A DNA stretch of 46,017 bases from the sequence record NC_073056.1; one strand, written 5' to 3'. Positions 17,440 through 42,576 of the stretch are shown here, one piece after another; position 1 is the first letter of the stretch, and each line of letters starts with the position of its first letter. A program made the position numbers and the translations under genes. This DNA comes from Escherichia phage rolling. The notes under the pieces are model-generated. The model saw only the letters and a program-made list of their open reading frames with translations. It searched no databases and had not been told where the DNA came from.

Positions 17440-17474
17440 AGTCCCAGTGAGCTAAAACTTACTGGGACTTTTTT
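17440..17474 (+). terminator. Intrinsic terminator abutting the holin start codon
   Basis: 9-bp stem AGTCCCAGT/ACTGGGACT, 12-nt loop, T5 tract ending 1 nt before ATG 17475. Confidence 0.55.
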
Positions 17475-17765
17475 ATGGATAAGCTAAACGAGTGGTTATT
17501 CGCCCTCGCGTGTCTGGCGGGTGGCTTTGTTGGCGCCCGCATTCACGGCGAGGCTACGAAAGGGCCGCTAAACTTCGTTTTATATATCGTGGTCGGCTTC
17601 TTGTGCGCCGTGTTTGGGGCACCAGCTATTGCCGAGTGGTTTAATCTAACCGGACCGAGAACTGTCGCCGGTCTTGGCTTCGTAACGGCAATCTTCTGGA
17701 TGCCGGTCGCCGCCAGAATCCGTGAAGCAATCTCCTCGTTCCGTCTGCCGGGGAATGCAAAATGA
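17475..17765 (+). CDS. Putative holin (96 aa, multi-TM)
   Basis: Hydrophobic helices; sits directly upstream of endolysin. Confidence 0.55.
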   Translation: MDKLNEWLFALACLAGGFVGARIHGEATKGPLNFVLYIVVGFLCAVFGAPAIAEWFNLTGPRTVAGLGFVTAIFWMPVAARIREAISSFRLPGNAK

Positions 17766-18001
17766 TTATCGCCATCCTGTTATTAGTGATCGGGGCTTCG
17801 TCGCTGTATAACGTATACGCGCCATCCGTCCAGGATGGCATTTGCGGACGGGTGCTCTACCTGCTTACAGCAATGACCTGTATTATTGGCCTGATGCAAA
17901 CGGGGGGCGTATCGAATACAGTCTGGTCCGTGCTAATCTGGCTATTCGCATTACGCACACTGCGTAATGCTGTTTTAAATGGGGTAAAACATGCGATTTA
18001 G
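17762..18001 (+). CDS. Membrane protein, putative holin/antiholin partner (79 aa)
   Basis: Two or three predicted TM helices; ATG with GGGGA RBS; overlaps flanking genes. Confidence 0.5.
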   Translation: MIIAILLLVIGASSLYNVYAPSVQDGICGRVLYLLTAMTCIIGLMQTGGVSNTVWSVLIWLFALRTLRNAVLNGVKHAI

Positions 18002-18482
18002 TGACAACGGTCTAAGATTTACGGCAGCGTGGGAGTCGTTCAGCCCAGTGCCGTATTTCGCGACTAAGAAGGAGCAGGCCCGCGGCTTGTACACCTGGGG
18101 CTACGGTCATACTGGCACTAATCCGCCACAGAGCATTACCCGCGCGGAAGCGCTGGAGCTACTCAAGCGTGATGTGGCGTATGCCGAGAACTGGGTGAAC
18201 AAGTACGCACACCCGAGCATCAATCAGGCGCAATTCGACGCGCTGGTGGATCTGGTAATCAATGCCGGTCAAGGTCCGATCGTACCGGATAACATTGCCA
18301 ATGACTTCGATGACGCGGTGCGCCTTGGTGATTGGGCCAAAGTCCGTGCTACGCTGCCGCAGTTCCGCAAGCAAGGCGGTGAAGTGCTCAAGGGCCTGGT
18401 ACGTCGTGCAATCGGCAGACAGGCGCTATTCGATGGTAAGCAGTGGGACGTTGCCGAGAAAATCGGTCGTAACGCGGCATAA
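17991..18482 (+). CDS. Endolysin, lysozyme-like (GH24-type)
   Basis: GLYTWGYGHTG and FDALVDLVINAG resemble phage lysozyme motifs; follows holin genes. Confidence 0.8.
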   Translation: MRFSDNGLRFTAAWESFSPVPYFATKKEQARGLYTWGYGHTGTNPPQSITRAEALELLKRDVAYAENWVNKYAHPSINQAQFDALVDLVINAGQGPIVPDNIANDFDDAVRLGDWAKVRATLPQFRKQGGEVLKGLVRRAIGRQALFDGKQWDVAEKIGRNAA

Positions 18483-18498
18483 TAAGAGGAAACACAGT

Positions 18499-18666
18499 AT
18501 GTTAAAAAGTATTCTTGATCATAACGCGAACGCACTTGCCGCACTGGCTAAAACGGAAGACCCAGGCGCGCGCGCCATTATCGCGGACACTATCAGTCAT
18601 GCGGGTGTCTTTGACGCGAAGCTGCCAAGCCCGCCACCGCCGGAAGAACCAGGCCCAGCGGCATAA
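18499..18666 (+). CDS. Hypothetical small protein (55 aa, Pro-rich C-terminus)
   Basis: Internal ATG (M80 of track ORF 18262..18666) with AGAGGA RBS. Confidence 0.45.
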   Translation: MLKSILDHNANALAALAKTEDPGARAIIADTISHAGVFDAKLPSPPPPEEPGPAA

Positions 18667-18671
18667 ACACG

Positions 18672-18697
18672 AAGCCCGGTTAATTCCGGGCTTTTTA
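18672..18697 (+). terminator. Intrinsic terminator
   Basis: AAGCCCGG-TTAATT-CCGGGCTT followed by T5. Confidence 0.65.
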
Positions 18698-18762
18698 TTG
18701 CTTGACTTGCAACCAACATAAGGGCCATACTGCAACCAATCAACGAGAAGGAGTAACACACT

Positions 18763-18843
18763 ATGACACGCAATGATATTTATGTACTGGCAATCTGGTC
18801 CGCCGCCGCATTCATCGGTATGGTTATTTGCGAATTGCTATAG
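18763..18843 (+). CDS. Putative 26-aa hydrophobic peptide
   Basis: ATG with AAGGAG RBS at ideal spacing; MTRNDIYVLAIWSAAAFIGMVICELL; below track cutoff. Confidence 0.3.
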   Translation: MTRNDIYVLAIWSAAAFIGMVICELL

Positions 18844-18904
18844 CCCGCCGCCATAAGGACCGTGGTATATTGTCCCCGGACCCATAATCAGGAAGTAAAT
18901 TAAT

Positions 18905-20047
18905 ATGCACCCTCAAACTAAAATTACCGACGAGCAATTGATCGCTGAATTGCAATCTGGCACTACCTCGAAAGATATTGCGAAGAAATACGGCATTGCA
19001 CTTCGTAATGTCTATATGCGCAAAGCCCGCCTGTCGAAGAAAGGTATTGGACACGGCAACGATGCTGTAATCCGTAAGCGCGTTGCCGATGGCTTCGGCG
19101 TTAAGCGTGTATCCGCCCTGGTGCGTGGCAATGGCGAGGAGGTAATGTCCTGGGTCATCACCGAGCAGGACAAGGAGCGCCAACTCGAAGCAATGCGCGC
19201 CGTTGTCGAGGGCATGAATAGCGAAATCACACCGGCAGCACCAGTGAGCGCTCCGCCAGTCCCGATCCAGGCGCTTGACCTGCTTAACCTGTATACCGTG
19301 TCTGACTTCCACCTGGGAATGTTGGCGTGGGGCGAGGAAACTGGCGAAGACTGGGATATGGCAATCGCCGAAGACCTTTTTTACCGCTGGTTTGTCGAGG
19401 CCTTCGCACGCGCACCGGACGCTGGCACTGCCGTTATCAATATCCTCGGTGATATGGCTCATTTTGATAGCCTTGATGCCGTCACGCCAGCCAGTGGTCA
19501 TGTACTGGATGCCGATACCCGCTACCAGAAGTTGGTCCGCTACATGATTCGCATGGTGCGCAACGTGGTTGAACTGGCGCTGCAAAAACACCATAAGGTC
19601 AAACTGCTAATCGTCCAGGGTAATCATGATGAGTCCGGTATGATTTGGCTGGCTGAGATGTTTAATACCCTGTACGAGAACGAGCCGCGCGTCGATGTGG
19701 ACACGTCCCCGGACGTATACAAAATGGTGCAGCACGGTAAAACAACGCTGTTCTTCCACCACGGACACAAAGCACGCTTTGACGCTATCGAGCCGGTCAT
19801 GATTTCTAAATTCAGACAGGCTTTCGGGTCCAGTGAGTACAGCTACGCGCACGTAGGCCACTTGCACCACCAAAAGATTGTAGAATCCCGCAACATGATT
19901 GTTGAACAGCACCGGACCCTTGCCGCGAAAGATGCATATGCAAGCCGCGGCGGTTGGCTGTCCGGTCGTAGTGCAAACGTCATCACCTATAGCGCCAACT
20001 ACGGCGAAGTAGCGCGCTTAACCATTAGCCCGGAAATGTTGAAATGA
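18905..20047 (+). CDS. HTH domain fused to calcineurin-like metallophosphoesterase
   Basis: N-terminal HTH TSKDIAKKYGIALRNVYMRKARL; phosphoesterase motifs GDMAHFD, QGNHDE, HHGHK, HVGHLHH. Confidence 0.75.
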   Translation: MHPQTKITDEQLIAELQSGTTSKDIAKKYGIALRNVYMRKARLSKKGIGHGNDAVIRKRVADGFGVKRVSALVRGNGEEVMSWVITEQDKERQLEAMRAVVEGMNSEITPAAPVSAPPVPIQALDLLNLYTVSDFHLGMLAWGEETGEDWDMAIAEDLFYRWFVEAFARAPDAGTAVINILGDMAHFDSLDAVTPASGHVLDADTRYQKLVRYMIRMVRNVVELALQKHHKVKLLIVQGNHDESGMIWLAEMFNTLYENEPRVDVDTSPDVYKMVQHGKTTLFFHHGHKARFDAIEPVMISKFRQAFGSSEYSYAHVGHLHHQKIVESRNMIVEQHRTLAAKDAYASRGGWLSGRSANVITYSANYGEVARLTISPEMLK

Positions 20048-20256
20048 TTAGACAAGTATTCATGAGCACGCAGGCCACCCGCCTGAAAGAACTACGCAAA
20101 CAACTCGAAGGCTTGCGCCGATTCGAACGAACGGCAGCGGCAGTCGGTATGTCGATGGATGAGCGAATCGAGATACTGTCGCAAATACGATACACAGAAG
20201 GCGCGATAAGCGAAGTACAAAGCATGTTAACCCGATACTACGGGCGCGCCGTTTAA
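20044..20256 (+). CDS. Hypothetical protein (70 aa)
   Basis: ORF track; ATGA overlap with upstream gene. Confidence 0.55.
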   Translation: MIRQVFMSTQATRLKELRKQLEGLRRFERTAAAVGMSMDERIEILSQIRYTEGAISEVQSMLTRYYGRAV

Positions 20257-20274
20257 ACCCCGCAGCCTGCCGAT

Positions 20275-20303
20275 TTGGTGGGCTTTTTTGTGCCTGTTAT
20301 AAT
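20275..20303 (+). promoter_or_regulatory. Sigma70-like promoter with extended -10 (TTGGTG-N17-TGTTATAAT) upstream of terminase genes
   Basis: Consensus TATAAT at 20298-20303 preceded by TG; weak -35 TTGGTG 20275-20280. Confidence 0.45.
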
Positions 20304-20373: not shown

Positions 20374-20925
20374 ATGGCAGAAATCAAAGTTAAGGGCCGA
20401 CGCGCCAAACTGGACGGACGAGTGGCAGTTACCCCGCGCCGTAAACCAGGCGAGCAAACAGAACACACCAATCTTGGACCTGAGATCGAATACGGCAAAC
20501 GTCGTAAAGGCGGCAAATGTGGACGCCCGACCGACTACCGCACCGTATATTGTGACCAGCTTCGCCGCTATTTTGCTGATGCCGTAGCTTGGCAGATCAA
20601 CTACTCCGACAAGGGCGCTGCGCAAGTAATCCCTCACAACAAGATGCCGACTCTCGGTCGCTTTGCCGCGGATATTGGCGTTGGCATCGCTTGCCTGTAC
20701 CGCTGGGCGCGCGCACATGAGGAGTTCGCCGAAGCGATGGCGGACGCTATGGAGTTGCAGAAAACTTTCCTGATGGAAGCTGGCGGCGTGACCATCGCGG
20801 CGGGCTTCGCAACGTTCCTGCTTAAAGCCAACCACGGCATTCGTGACGATGCTCCGCTGGATGACGACGAAGATGATAACGGCGACGTCGTTGTCGAACC
20901 TACCGGCAAAGGCCAGGGTGAGTAA
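20374..20925 (+). CDS. Terminase small subunit
   Basis: Internal ATG (M34) with RBS; HTH-like MPTLGRFAADIGVGIACLYRWARAHEEF; immediately precedes TerL (TAATG overlap). Confidence 0.7.
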   Translation: MAEIKVKGRRAKLDGRVAVTPRRKPGEQTEHTNLGPEIEYGKRRKGGKCGRPTDYRTVYCDQLRRYFADAVAWQINYSDKGAAQVIPHNKMPTLGRFAADIGVGIACLYRWARAHEEFAEAMADAMELQKTFLMEAGGVTIAAGFATFLLKANHGIRDDAPLDDDEDDNGDVVVEPTGKGQGE

Positions 20926-22310
20926 TGCGTAACTATGCGGCAGAACACCGCGCACTCGAACGCTCGATCGCAAAGCGCAACCGACCTCCACGCCCTACGC
21001 GCGTTGCGCAGGCCGTCCGTCTGTATCAGCCTGATTGCCTACCGCACCAGGTGGAACTACTGCGCGACACGAAGACCAAAATCCTCGGCCTTTGCTCCGG
21101 CTTCGGTGGCGGCAAGTCGTGGGTTGCGGCACGTAAGGTCATCCAGCTTCTCACACTTAACCCTGGTCATGATGGCATCGTGACAGAACCGACTATTCCA
21201 CTCCTGGTTAAAATCATGTACCCGGAGCTTGAGAAGGCTTTCGATGAGGCTGGATTCCGGTGGAAGTTCAACAAGCAGGACAAGATTTACAGCGTGCTGG
21301 TGAAAGGCAAGTGGACCCGCGTTATCTGCGAGTCAATGGAGAACTACACCCGCCTTATCGGGGTTAACGCCGCGTGGATTGTTGCCGATGAGTTCGACAC
21401 CACGAAGCAAGACGTCGCAATGGCGGCGTATCACAAATTGCTCGGTCGTCTGCGTGCGGGCCTGGTGCGCCAGTTTGTCATCGTATCCACGCCGGAAGGC
21501 TTCCGGGCGATGTATCAGATTTTCGAAGTGGAGAAGGATAGCCAAAAACGTTTGATCAGGGCAAAGACTACCGACAACCACCACTTACCGGCAGACTTTA
21601 TCGACACGCTGCGAAGCCAGTACCCGGCAAACCTGATTGACGCATACCTGAACGGCCTGTTTGTCAACCTTACGTCTGGCGCGGTCTATAAGATGTTTAA
21701 CCGAGAAGAGAACGCCAGCACCGAGGAAGTGCATCCGGATGATACGCTGATTATCGGTATGGACTTTAACGTCACTAAAATGGCGGCGGTTGTGTACGTC
21801 AGACGGCAGCGCACTATCGAGAACAAGGAGTTCCGCGACGAGATTCACGCAGTGGATGAATTTGTGGACCTGTTTGATACCCCGGCTATGATTGAGGCGA
21901 TCGAGGAGCGCTACCCGGAACATTGTGCTGCCGGTCGGGTCGTCGTTTACCCGGATAGCAGTGGCAAGTCGCGTAAGACTGTTAACGCGTCGTCGTCCGA
22001 TATCGCGCAACTGGAAGACGCTGGCTTTGAGGTGGAGTATGACAGCGTTAACCCGCCCGTGAAAGACAGATTGATCGCGATGAATACGATGATGTGCAAC
22101 TCGAAGGGCGTGCGCCAGTATTTTGTCAACCTGGATAAATGCCCTACACTAGCGAAATGTCTGGAACAGCAGGTTTATGACCTGAAGAAAGGCGAGCCGG
22201 ATAAAACCGCCGGTGTGGACCACATGAACGATGCCGCGGGCTACCCTGTTGCGCACCTGTTCCCAGTGATTCGACCTATCGCCGTTGTTCCATCTGTAGA
22301 CTTCTACTAA
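20925..22310 (+). CDS. Terminase large subunit
   Basis: Walker A LGLCSGFGGGKSW; size and position before portal. Confidence 0.85.
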   Translation: MRNYAAEHRALERSIAKRNRPPRPTRVAQAVRLYQPDCLPHQVELLRDTKTKILGLCSGFGGGKSWVAARKVIQLLTLNPGHDGIVTEPTIPLLVKIMYPELEKAFDEAGFRWKFNKQDKIYSVLVKGKWTRVICESMENYTRLIGVNAAWIVADEFDTTKQDVAMAAYHKLLGRLRAGLVRQFVIVSTPEGFRAMYQIFEVEKDSQKRLIRAKTTDNHHLPADFIDTLRSQYPANLIDAYLNGLFVNLTSGAVYKMFNREENASTEEVHPDDTLIIGMDFNVTKMAAVVYVRRQRTIENKEFRDEIHAVDEFVDLFDTPAMIEAIEERYPEHCAAGRVVVYPDSSGKSRKTVNASSSDIAQLEDAGFEVEYDSVNPPVKDRLIAMNTMMCNSKGVRQYFVNLDKCPTLAKCLEQQVYDLKKGEPDKTAGVDHMNDAAGYPVAHLFPVIRPIAVVPSVDFY

Positions 22311-22320
22311 GGAAACGACC

Positions 22321-23841
22321 ATGACCGTTAACGTTGACAACCAGCACCCACTCTATGCGCGCATCGCGCAGGAGTGGAAAATGATCCGGGATTGCGTAGC
22401 GGGGGAGTGCGCCGTGAAGGCGTGCGGCCCCTTGTACCTGCCACATCCCGCCAGTGGCGATAATACCGACCCGAAAGCACGGGCGCGATATAAGGCGTAT
22501 AAGCAACGCGCTGTATTCCTGAACGCCACCGCACGCACGCTTAATGCGCTGTTAGGCGTCGCCTTCGCTAAGCCGGTAAGTCTGGACCTTTCCGGGGCGA
22601 TGGCTGACCTGATTGATGACGTAGACGGCAGCGGAATGCCACTGCCGCAACTCCTGCGCGGTGCTATGTCGGAAGTGCTGCAATCGGGCCGCGCGGGCTT
22701 TATGGTGGACTACGACCGCCAGGCTAACTTTGATGAACTGGGTAACGTAGTGCCGCAGACCGCCGCCGAGATGGCGACGCACCGCCCGCTTATCCGCCTG
22801 TATACGGCAGAACAGATCATCAACTGGCGGCAGACCCACGGGATTGACACGCTAATCGTGCTGAAGGAAACGGACGAAATCAGCACCGAAGACCCGGACG
22901 ACTTTGCAAACCACGAAGTAACGATCTGGACTGAATTGCGCATGATTAACGGCGCAGCACACGCCCGCCGCTGGTTTTACAACGCAGACACGTCCGAGGT
23001 GCAGATGGATTTGCCGCGTGGCTTCACCCGCACCGAGCTTGTGCCGCTGGTGGATGCTGCCGGTCGAGCGCTTACTCAACTGCCATTTTGCTGGTGCGGT
23101 GCGGTGGACAACAACGCAACGCCTGACGCCGCGCCGCTGGCGGATATTGCATCCATCAACATTAAGCATTACAACGCTGAGGCGGACGTTGCCGAGATCG
23201 CGCACATCGTGGGTCAGCCTACCCTTGTCGCCACGGGCTTGACTCAATCATGGGCCGACAAAAACCTGAAGGGCGGGATTGCTCTCGGCGCGACTAAGGG
23301 TGTTATCCTGGGCCAGAACATGGACGCTAAACTGATTCAGGCCGAGGAGCGCAACTTGTCTGTTGCACTTTGTGAGCGCCGCGAATTGCAGATGGCTAAA
23401 CTGGGCGCGGCCCTGGTTGAGAAGGGGACCGCACCCAAGACGGCAACTGAAGCGGCATACGATGCGCAGACTGACAATAGTATCCTGTCGCTCATTGCAG
23501 GTAACGTTGAGAAGGCTTTCAACCGTGCGCTGCAAATCGTCCAGCTATTCACGGGTGATACCGCGGACCAGCGCGTGACGCTGAACAAGTTCTACACCGA
23601 AATCACGGTTGACGCGCAGCTTATGACCGCAATGATGGCTGGTGTGCAGACCGGTACGGTCCGACTGGCTGACTTCATCAAGTGGATGATGGCGCAGGGC
23701 GTTATCGATGACTCGCAAACCGTCGAGCAGGTGGAAGACGAATTGCGAAATCAGAATCCATTGCCTCAAATGTCCCCTGATGCGGTAGAATCTACCGAAG
23801 AAGACCCGGACAAGGTAGCGGACAATGGCGAGAACAATTAA
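22321..23841 (+). CDS. Portal protein
   Basis: 506 aa ORF directly after TerL with AAGGA RBS; acidic C-terminus; call from synteny. Confidence 0.75.
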   Translation: MTVNVDNQHPLYARIAQEWKMIRDCVAGECAVKACGPLYLPHPASGDNTDPKARARYKAYKQRAVFLNATARTLNALLGVAFAKPVSLDLSGAMADLIDDVDGSGMPLPQLLRGAMSEVLQSGRAGFMVDYDRQANFDELGNVVPQTAAEMATHRPLIRLYTAEQIINWRQTHGIDTLIVLKETDEISTEDPDDFANHEVTIWTELRMINGAAHARRWFYNADTSEVQMDLPRGFTRTELVPLVDAAGRALTQLPFCWCGAVDNNATPDAAPLADIASINIKHYNAEADVAEIAHIVGQPTLVATGLTQSWADKNLKGGIALGATKGVILGQNMDAKLIQAEERNLSVALCERRELQMAKLGAALVEKGTAPKTATEAAYDAQTDNSILSLIAGNVEKAFNRALQIVQLFTGDTADQRVTLNKFYTEITVDAQLMTAMMAGVQTGTVRLADFIKWMMAQGVIDDSQTVEQVEDELRNQNPLPQMSPDAVESTEEDPDKVADNGENN

Positions 23842-41902: not shown

Positions 41903-42576
41903 TGGCTAATTACGGCGCGTTGATTGACTTACCAAACGGCAACCCGTTTATCACGCCAGAATCGACGCCGTTTTGTCTATTCCGCCGTGTGGTTGTTGGG
42001 TCTTCGGCTAACGGCACTGCGCAGTCGGCGGCTGCCGATATTAATTTGGGCGGTGACTACCCTGCAATAGCGTTTGTGAAAACTACGAACACCGCCCAGC
42101 CGACCGTCGTAGGGTCTTCTCGCGTTGGTAATGTGGTGAAGGTGAGCGCCAGCAATCCATTTGGGCAAGGATTCACGATGACGGCATACATCTTTGCCAT
42201 ATTCCCACAGACCCTTCCGCGGTGGGGCTTCGCTATTTGGGATAAGACGGGGAGGCTAGTGCTGACGAACGAGAGCCGGGTACTAAGCGATTTAGTTACC
42301 GTCGGATCGCCAGGCGCTAACGGGGGGATTAACATTGACCAGACGCTAAACGGCAGCTACGCCGTCGCTCCGGGCATATTGGGGTCTACGCTGATCCGGT
42401 TTTTTGTGCAGGGCCAGCCGCAGGTAATATCGGTAACGGCGTACACGGGGGCCAGATTTGATGGGTCGCGAACGCGTATATCGGCAGCGTCGTCGGGGAA
42501 CGCCACGGGGGATGTGGTTGGGTATACTAACAACGGCAACGCGATTATGGCGATTAACACTGCCAATTATGATTGA
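41902..42576 (+). CDS. Hypothetical tail-associated protein (224 aa)
   Basis: ORF track; Gly/Ser/Thr-rich. Confidence 0.6.
   Translation: MANYGALIDLPNGNPFITPESTPFCLFRRVVVGSSANGTAQSAAADINLGGDYPAIAFVKTTNTAQPTVVGSSRVGNVVKVSASNPFGQGFTMTAYIFAIFPQTLPRWGFAIWDKTGRLVLTNESRVLSDLVTVGSPGANGGINIDQTLNGSYAVAPGILGSTLIRFFVQGQPQVISVTAYTGARFDGSRTRISAASSGNATGDVVGYTNNGNAIMAINTANYD

Follow-up and report, generated by a model that had tools for sequence, protein, structure and literature searches.

The window, a stretch of 46,017 nucleotides from Escherichia phage rolling (NC_073056.1), derives from a Dhillonvirus-like coliphage and carries at 18905..20047 of its plus strand a gene for a protein of 380 amino acids, in which an N-terminal helix-turn-helix (HTH) is joined to a metallophosphoesterase of the phage T1 gp16 family (PHROG 704). 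The gene starts with ATG, and reading of the sequence places a Shine-Dalgarno element, AGGAAG, 9 nt 5' of the start codon (18890..18895, +). Its nucleotide identity to vB_EcoS_WF5505, WFI and others is 96-98%. A first-pass annotation of the same DNA had delimited this open reading frame (ORF) and read in it an HTH and several phosphoesterase motifs, suggesting either a regulator or a DNA-end-processing enzyme. Here, we weigh these possibilities using codon substitutions, a family alignment, a structural model and the gene order at related loci.

A selected gene of a common phage family

The gene is genuine and under strong purifying selection, not a chance ORF. Between it and its orthologue in Escherichia phage Haito_Bas83 (Bas83), the closest well-annotated relative, 48 codon differences are synonymous and one is non-synonymous, and comparison with two other Dhillonvirus contigs yields 98 synonymous and 7-8 non-synonymous differences. 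The G+C content of the gene is 53.5%, versus 54.2% for the window. On the opposite strand, a 256-aa ORF (18824..19594, -) lies entirely within the upstream spacer and the start of the phosphoesterase gene; we dismiss it as almost certainly spurious, because the great majority of the substitutions affect the third position of plus-strand codons.

The protein is an ordinary member of a large, already catalogued and very common phage family. It matches PHROG 704 with an E-value of 1.4e-160 (residues 5-380 against profile positions 2-390 of 390) and is 99.7% identical in amino acid sequence to Bas83_0070; both the PHROG and the Bas83 record use the name 'DNA repair exonuclease', which for the family is a homology-based prediction. 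The homologue in phage T1 is gp16/ST16 (PHROG 704, E 7e-155). Other records list relatives as hypothetical protein, calcineurin-like phosphoesterase, metallophosphoesterase, winged-HTH protein, phosphatase, oxidoreductase or 'DNA polymerase small subunit'. Megablast finds the gene in 151 phage records, in 150 of them unsplit, and tblastn extends the relatives to 2,061 phage records, among them Dhillonvirus, Kagunavirus, Jerseyvirus, Drexlerviridae including Webervirus, and Casjensviridae, as well as phages of Vibrio, Campylobacter and Flavobacterium. An exhaustive search of 1.84 billion representatives returned 4,630 clusters (50% identity) at E <= 1e-3 and 1,129 at E <= 1e-30. Since most cluster members are 370-420 aa long, the three-part architecture described below is the norm of the family.

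Domain architecture and the type of phosphoesterase

To describe the protein we used an alignment of 66 family members (26-97% identity), drawn from three database searches, and an AlphaFold2 model built with it (predicted local distance difference test score, pLDDT, 83.7; predicted template modelling score 0.71). In the model, residues 9-45 (18929..19039, +) form a bundle of three helices (9-17, 22-29 and 33-45), bearing out the N-terminal HTH of the first-pass annotation; residues 1-46 are basic (isoelectric point, pI, 10.1) and are followed by a disordered linker at residues 47-57. The second part is a conserved module of a beta-hairpin and a helix (residues 64-107; 19094..19225, +; strands 64-73 and 79-88, helix 90-105) in which Ser70 and Trp83 are invariant in all 66 members. 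Another linker separates this module from the catalytic domain (residues 126-380; 19280..20044, +), which is modelled as a compact alpha/beta unit with pLDDT values mostly of 90-98.

The catalytic domain is a binuclear metallophosphoesterase with all five motifs of the calcineurin-like superfamily (DxH, GD, GNH[DE], H and GHxH) and its alpha/beta sandwich fold. Motif I is D134-F-H136 (19304..19312, +), with Asp134 and His136 invariant across the alignment (66/66), as are the Gly, Asp and His of motif II, G182-D183-M-A-H186 (GDxxH; 19448..19462, +), and the GNH of motif III, G239-N240-H241-D242 (19619..19630, +), whose last position is Asp in 40 members and Ser in 26. Motif IV, H285-H286 (19757..19762, +), and Gly318, His319 and His321 of motif V, G318-H319-L-H321 (GHxH; 19856..19867, +), are likewise invariant (66/66). 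The strings picked out by the first-pass annotation thus fall where they should: GDMAHFD (G182-D188) is motif II, GNHDE (G239-E243) is motif III, and the GH pairs belong to HHGH (285-288) and GHLHH (318-322). Judged by these motifs, the predicted set of metal ligands is complete, comprising Asp134, His136, Asp183, Asn240, His285/His286, His319 and His321, to which a putative transition-state histidine (His241) and an Mre11-type histidine (His186) can be added.

Profile searches with the single sequence are less telling. All Pfam matches are below threshold: Metallophos_2 (E 1.7e-4) scores 22.1 bits against a gathering threshold of 27, Metallophos (E 1e-3) 20.0 against 21.5, and GerE, an HTH model (E 0.015), 15.4 against 23.5. 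Scanning all 66 members gives HTH_1 in 28, HTH_50 in 16 and other HTH models in a few, and Metallophos or Metallophos_2 at E < 0.01 in just 9-10. The Pfam models fail to capture so diverged a family, whose place in the calcineurin-like superfamily therefore rests on motifs and fold. Of the domain search proposed in the first-pass annotation, the single-sequence part thus stays below threshold, and it is for the family as a whole that the evidence is solid. The HTH matches of the members scatter over HTH_1, HTH_50, HTH_8, HTH_28 and Sigma70_r4_2, and the N-terminal domain is best called a generic small HTH, with the predicted geometry of a three-helix bundle; the AlphaFold2 model has no wing, despite the NCBI label 'winged HTH'. 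This domain is the least conserved part of the protein, with a mean identity to distant members of 18% versus 42% for the catalytic domain, and members without it exist, such as F370_146 of a Campylobacter phage (Fletchervirus; 317 aa). In these Campylobacter homologues, the PHROG 704 alignment begins at profile position 78, roughly at the module of residues 64-107, most or all of which seems to be kept.

In a structural ranking of the model, nucleases stand at the top: Mre11 of T. maritima (14.8), SbcD of S. aureus (14.7) and the proofreading exonuclease DP1 of archaeal polymerase PolD (14.5), with further Mre11/SbcD entries at 13.0-13.6. MJ0936 (13.6), Vps29 (13.6), LpxH (13.4) and YfcE (13.0) follow closely, and protein phosphatases of the PPP type reach only 8.6-8.8. 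Direct sequence searching found no match to a solved structure. When a profile of the catalytic domain was compared with PDB sequences, the phosphoesterases matched were all nucleases, namely the P. putida 'Nuclease MPE', P. furiosus Mre11 and T. maritima Mre11/SbcD, at E-values of 0.5-2.5, none significant alone. Two designed armadillo-repeat structures among the matches were rejected as artefacts, in which nine sub-threshold repeat matches had been summed. The invariant GDxxH of the family aligns with GDLFH in P. furiosus Mre11 and GDFLH in P. putida MPE; the motif II histidine of Mre11 is implicated in exonuclease action. The catalytic domain is closest to Mre11, SbcD and PolD-DP1, and Mre11/SbcD-like is its best description, with the proviso that the structural ranking is not sharp enough to set aside a phosphodiesterase acting on termini or small molecules.

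Gene order in the window and at other loci

The local gene order combines the ORFs with PHROG, Pfam and hairpin scans and with the annotation of Bas83. Upstream of the gene lies a lysis cassette of two holins (17475-17765 and 17762-18001) and an endolysin (17991-18482), closed by an intrinsic-terminator-like hairpin at 18671..18694 (+), with a GC-rich stem of 9 bp followed by TTTTTATT (-18.3 kcal/mol, z = -4.0 versus shuffles), which also bounds the phosphoesterase unit on its upstream side. Downstream, the stop codon of the phosphoesterase overlaps the start of a 70-aa ORF (ATGA; 20044..20256, +), and a second terminator-like hairpin of 9 pairs with a U-tract, TTTTTTGTG, follows at 20264..20284 (+); its support is moderate (-12.3 kcal/mol, z only -1.2). 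Then come the small terminase subunit TerS (20374-20925, +; PHROG 3064), the large subunit TerL (20925-22310, +; Terminase_6N E 1.4e-14, Terminase_6C E 2.5e-7) and the portal gene (22321-23841). The phosphoesterase gene, which looks like a small transcription unit of its own bracketed by hairpins, thus lies between the lysis cassette and the packaging genes and not at the early/late boundary, where the first-pass annotation had placed it. Its description as lying just upstream of the terminase genes is literally correct here, with the 70-aa ORF and the terminator-like hairpin in between.

Within this unit, a weak sigma-70-like promoter candidate can be read at 18702..18731 (+; TTGACT, 18 nt, CATACT; 9 of 12 consensus matches). 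It is a candidate only, because a consensus scan of the region found no more sites than chance provides (3 versus 2.8 expected). The 70-aa product is basic (pI 10.1) and probably helical, and belongs to PHROG 20931 (E 2.4e-48), of unknown function, with no Pfam match. No such companion was seen downstream of the family gene in T1, tuinn, RcMaeve or the other loci examined; the ORF is apparently a feature of the present lineage alone, with possible translational coupling to the phosphoesterase.

Several smaller features surround these genes. A very hydrophobic 26-aa ORF without a family match, MTRNDIYVLAIWSAAAFIGMVICELL (18763-18843, +), lies between the terminator hairpin and the phosphoesterase gene and could be a small membrane peptide or nothing. 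Directly 3' of the endolysin, a 55-aa ORF with a proline-rich tail, PSPPPPEEPGPAA (18499-18666, +), belongs to PHROG 11068, of unknown function, and its position would suit a lysis accessory or spanin-like gene; Bas83 annotates in its place another small ORF across the terminator hairpin. The lysis cassette is itself bracketed by terminators, since a strong hairpin (17440..17469, +; 12-bp stem, -24 kcal/mol, z -7.9) directly precedes the first holin, and it may need read-through or a promoter of its own. In the otherwise well-annotated Bas83 record, TerL is labelled merely 'hypothetical protein' (552-1937 of the Bas83 locus).

At other loci, adjacency to the terminase is not conserved. According to a published pangenome analysis of Drexlerviridae, the 'DNA repair exonuclease' gene persists beside the lysis cassette in 508 of 522 genomes, and a polynucleotide kinase (PNK) and a deoxynucleoside monophosphate (dNMP) kinase are the most frequent genes after it (PMC13164509). 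In T1, gp16 at 40.8 kb is followed directly by an annotated terminator and then by an HNH gene, a small ORF and the holin-endolysin-spanin genes; the nearest upstream terminator lies about 0.8 kb before it, with two small ORFs between. The family gene also precedes the lysis cassette in Warwickvirus tuinn and in Webervirus Kp109, where a PNKP-type HAD phosphatase and a dNMP-kinase gene are interposed, and it comes after holin and endolysin in Rhodobacter phage RcMaeve. In a Campylobacter myophage, the homologue is flanked by a T4 gp30-like ligase and a Holliday-junction resolvase. In a lambda-like prophage of a Microbulbifer sp. chromosome (CP174300.1, 174361-195578), a family member lies directly after NinG in a nin-like region: ERF, YqaJ and SSB run leftward, and the replication protein, NinG, the HTH-phosphoesterase, a dGTP-diphosphohydrolase-like gene, holin, terminase and portal follow in this order. 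The family is therefore not restricted to virulent phages, and the common denominator of these contexts is the distal end of the replication/recombination ('nin-like') region, where it abuts the lysis cassette.

A different arrangement is found in Jerseyvirus wast, a Salmonella phage, and in Pantoea phage AH01, where the family gene is an opposite-strand insert within the tail gene cluster. In these and about 13 IMG/VR loci of Guernseyvirinae or Kagunavirus-like phages, the inserted module is flanked by the tail-tube gene on one side and the genes for the tail chaperone and the tape measure on the other, and contains in addition an Imm_superinfect membrane protein and either an HNH_3 gene or a HAD_PNKP phosphatase with a kinase-like gene. 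The tail cluster is an unusual place for genes of DNA metabolism.

A census of 77 viral contigs, in which the ten nearest ORFs were clustered, found no universal neighbour. At fixed positions, the antiterminator Q (+1) and a HAD_PNKP phosphatase (+1) occur at 7 loci each, and a P-loop kinase-like gene (mostly +2) and an Imm_superinfect membrane protein (-1) at 8 each; at variable positions, HNH_3 homing endonucleases (8 loci), endolysin (7), DUF3310 (7), the YbcO nuclease (6) and TerL (4) recur. A conserved protein partner was likewise rejected, the downstream gene varying by lineage: it encodes the PHROG 20931 protein in the window, an HNH_3 homing-type endonuclease in T1, Jerseyvirus wast and Vibrio K217, and a PHROG 631/9263 protein in Pantoea AH01, and has no counterpart in tuinn or RcMaeve. 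Homing-type HNH_3 genes, sometimes with AP2, recur beside the family gene in unrelated lineages (T1 gp15, 42028-42510; wast, locus L005, 4659-5159; locus L003, 5010-5519; 8 IMG/VR loci), and PHROGs 20703 and 20762, like several BFVD entries, correspond to pieces of the family protein. This suggests that mobile endonucleases often target the locus, or else that annotation often splits it.

These contexts bear on what the gene could do. An accessory packaging nuclease, working with the terminase as HNH proteins assist some terminases, would suit the order of genes in the window, but that order is specific to the Dhillonvirus lineage, and we therefore reject a functional link to the terminase. 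In T1, TerS lies at 8.4 kb, some 32 kb from gp16; Warwickvirus, Webervirus, Jerseyvirus, members of the Casjensviridae and the Vibrio phage show no adjacency either; TerL is a neighbour at only 4 of the 77 loci; and even in the window a terminator-like hairpin separates the gene from TerS. The packaging role is accordingly very improbable, and the positional argument of the first-pass annotation fails.

The nin-like position invites comparison with NinI, the lambda phosphatase, whose gene lies in the nin region just upstream of Q. A protein phosphatase that is the positional counterpart of NinI would account for the family gene following NinG in the prophage and directly preceding Q in 7 contigs, but the PPP signatures (GDxHG, GDxVDRG and GNHE) and the PPP fold are both absent from the protein, and we consider such a phosphatase hardly credible. 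The same adjacency to Q, together with the persistent lysis cassette and the resemblance of the HTH to those of LuxR/GerE, LysR and sigma region 4, could be read as the mark of a transcription regulator, with the HTH acting on a phage promoter, for example of lysis or late genes, and the phosphoesterase serving as sensor or accessory. However, the catalytic residues are invariant throughout the family, so that catalysis must be under selection, and the HTH is both the least conserved segment and missing from some members; moreover, a location at the end of the replication/nin-like region explains the adjacency to lysis genes and Q with no regulatory link needed. For these reasons a primarily regulatory function is improbable, and of the two functions first suggested for the protein, end processing remains the leading one.

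The kinase and phosphatase genes support a more serious alternative. Here the enzyme would be no DNA nuclease, and its phosphodiesterase or phosphatase activity would be directed at the termini of nucleic acids or at small nucleotides. In one version it would heal ends, as a 2',3'-cyclic phosphodiesterase or 3'-phosphatase, in concert with a PNK-type phosphatase, a kinase and a ligase; phosphoesterases of the calcineurin-like superfamily carry out this task in bacterial Pnkp, and mycobacteriophage D29 gp66 is reportedly a 2',3'-cyclic phosphodiesterase. Consistent with this, a PNKP-type HAD phosphatase and a P-loop kinase-like gene recurrently lie downstream (in Webervirus and in Kagunavirus-like contigs, they follow the family gene), a DNA ligase adjoins it in Campylobacter phages, and a dGTP-diphosphohydrolase-like gene does so in the prophage. 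In another version, the enzyme would destroy cyclic (oligo)nucleotide immune signals; the PADLOC hidden Markov models gave no match at E <= 0.01, in a library of defence and not of counter-defence proteins. A conserved DNA-binding HTH would be unexpected in a small-molecule enzyme, nucleases are the best matches in both structure and profile, and the Mre11-type histidine of GDxxH is invariant. We therefore regard an enzyme of termini or small nucleotides as unlikely, though clearly less so than a regulator, a packaging factor or a protein phosphatase.

Proposed function and relation to known systems

As a plausible mechanism, we propose that the protein is a stand-alone nuclease of the Mre11/SbcD-like branch of the two-metal phosphoesterases, independent of Rad50/SbcC. 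The basic N-terminal HTH, a DNA-binding fold, would keep the enzyme on duplex DNA through its flexible linker, while the C-terminal domain would cut DNA ends or DNA secondary structures in an Mn2+-dependent manner, and the role would be in accessory phage DNA metabolism. We infer DNA as the probable substrate, and likewise the preference for metal, the polarity of the nuclease, DNA binding by the HTH and the biological role. Taken as a whole, a Rad50-independent, Mn-dependent DNA nuclease, tethered by its HTH and serving phage replication/recombination or the breakdown of host DNA, appears to us probable, though by no means secure.

Two compatible roles can be envisaged for such a nuclease. 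In the first, ends, hairpins and branched intermediates of replication and recombination would be trimmed or opened before packaging, during concatemer maturation and recombination-dependent replication; the NinG, resolvase, ligase and VRR-NUC contexts and the presence in a prophage favour this role, which we propose tentatively. In the second, the enzyme would break down host DNA and thereby feed nucleotide salvage, as the kinase and phosphatase neighbours would suggest, a role that we put forward with rather more reserve. T1 is known to degrade host DNA (references in the list of PMC11447400), and a Tunavirinae phage triggers a sensor of the host-DNA degradation product m6-dAMP. A bolder version, that the T1 gp16 family is the nuclease by which T1-like and related siphophages break down the host chromosome without a Rad50 partner, is speculative and, in our estimate, unlikely. 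If it were true, gp16 would be the function behind the classical T1 host-DNA degradation and the high-transduction mutants, and the source of the m6-dAMP sensed by the Metis and PUA-Cal-HAD defence systems. The persistent link between the gene and the lysis cassette would then be a matter of timing, both acting at the end of infection.

Several observations weigh against a nuclease with these properties. The profile matches to nucleases are individually insignificant, as stated above. The protein stops at the end of the catalytic core, so that no capping domain of the Mre11 type is apparent, and the annotation of the complete Bas83 genome includes no Rad50/SbcC-like gene; none was found among the neighbours at the 77 viral loci or in T1 either. 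The occurrence in a prophage argues against wholesale destruction of host DNA as the general role of the family. In the Dhillonvirus vB_EcoS-22664B1 (MZ234008.1, 3471-4668), the orthologue is split into two coding sequences, with a 55-bp direct tandem duplication after nt 464 and a frameshift between motifs I and II that leaves Asp183 in neither fragment. This copy is either a natural knockout or an assembly artefact; in the former case, laboratory growth does not require the function, a common situation for accessory genes of DNA metabolism. Finally, no biochemical or genetic experiment on any family member was found in the literature examined, which dealt with Metis, PUA-Cal-HAD, the viral fold compendium, TLS, daunorubicin/BASEL and T5, with the 2004 T1 genome paper outside this coverage; the family comes up only in the KanT1 comparative paper, as a gene persistently located next to the lysis module (PMC13164509).

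As a sequence feature, the gene belongs to an ordinary and already known family. Its interest is that a gene so persistent, and close to core in Drexlerviridae, Dhillonvirus, Guernseyvirinae and many environmental siphophages, combines an intact Mre11-like active site and a putative DNA tether with the lack of a Rad50 partner. Assigning its function would clarify how small virulent siphophages process DNA ends and intermediates, or how host DNA is degraded, a question that is relevant now that defence systems are known to sense the products of host-DNA breakdown.

Among known systems, T1 gp16 and Bas83_0070 belong to the same family as the window protein and share its three-part architecture. 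In T1 and most Drexlerviridae, however, the gene stands before the lysis cassette and far from the terminase, whereas in the window it stands after the lysis cassette and before TerS. The pre-early protein A1 of phage T5, which is needed for host DNA degradation, is a predicted metallophosphatase resembling double-strand-break-repair nucleases and polymerase proofreading subunits (10.64898/2026.04.02.716235). We rejected homology between A1 and the window protein (hhalign probability 3.5%); A1 has 556 aa and belongs to a separate PHROG (1745), and since no homology is detectable it is at most a functional analogue. In comparison with the small subunit DP1 of archaeal PolD (PDB 5ihe), the window phage lacks the catalytic partner DP2, its polymerase being a single 763-aa ORF ('DNA polymerase' in Bas83); a DP1-type label is a transfer at the level of the fold and no evidence of function. 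With Mre11/SbcD (PDB 3qg5, 7dog, 6s6v and 1ii7), the window protein has a sequence identity of just 14-19%; it shares the phosphoesterase core with the motif II histidine (GDxxH) and differs in having the N-terminal HTH and hairpin module and no apparent capping domain. P. putida MPE is an Mn-dependent endonuclease of single-stranded DNA from a repair gene cluster. As the top PDB profile match (PDB 6nvo; related to the PdeM family), it resembles the window protein in motif II (GDFLH) and motif III (GNHD), and it is small and acts alone, without Rad50, as is proposed for the window protein.

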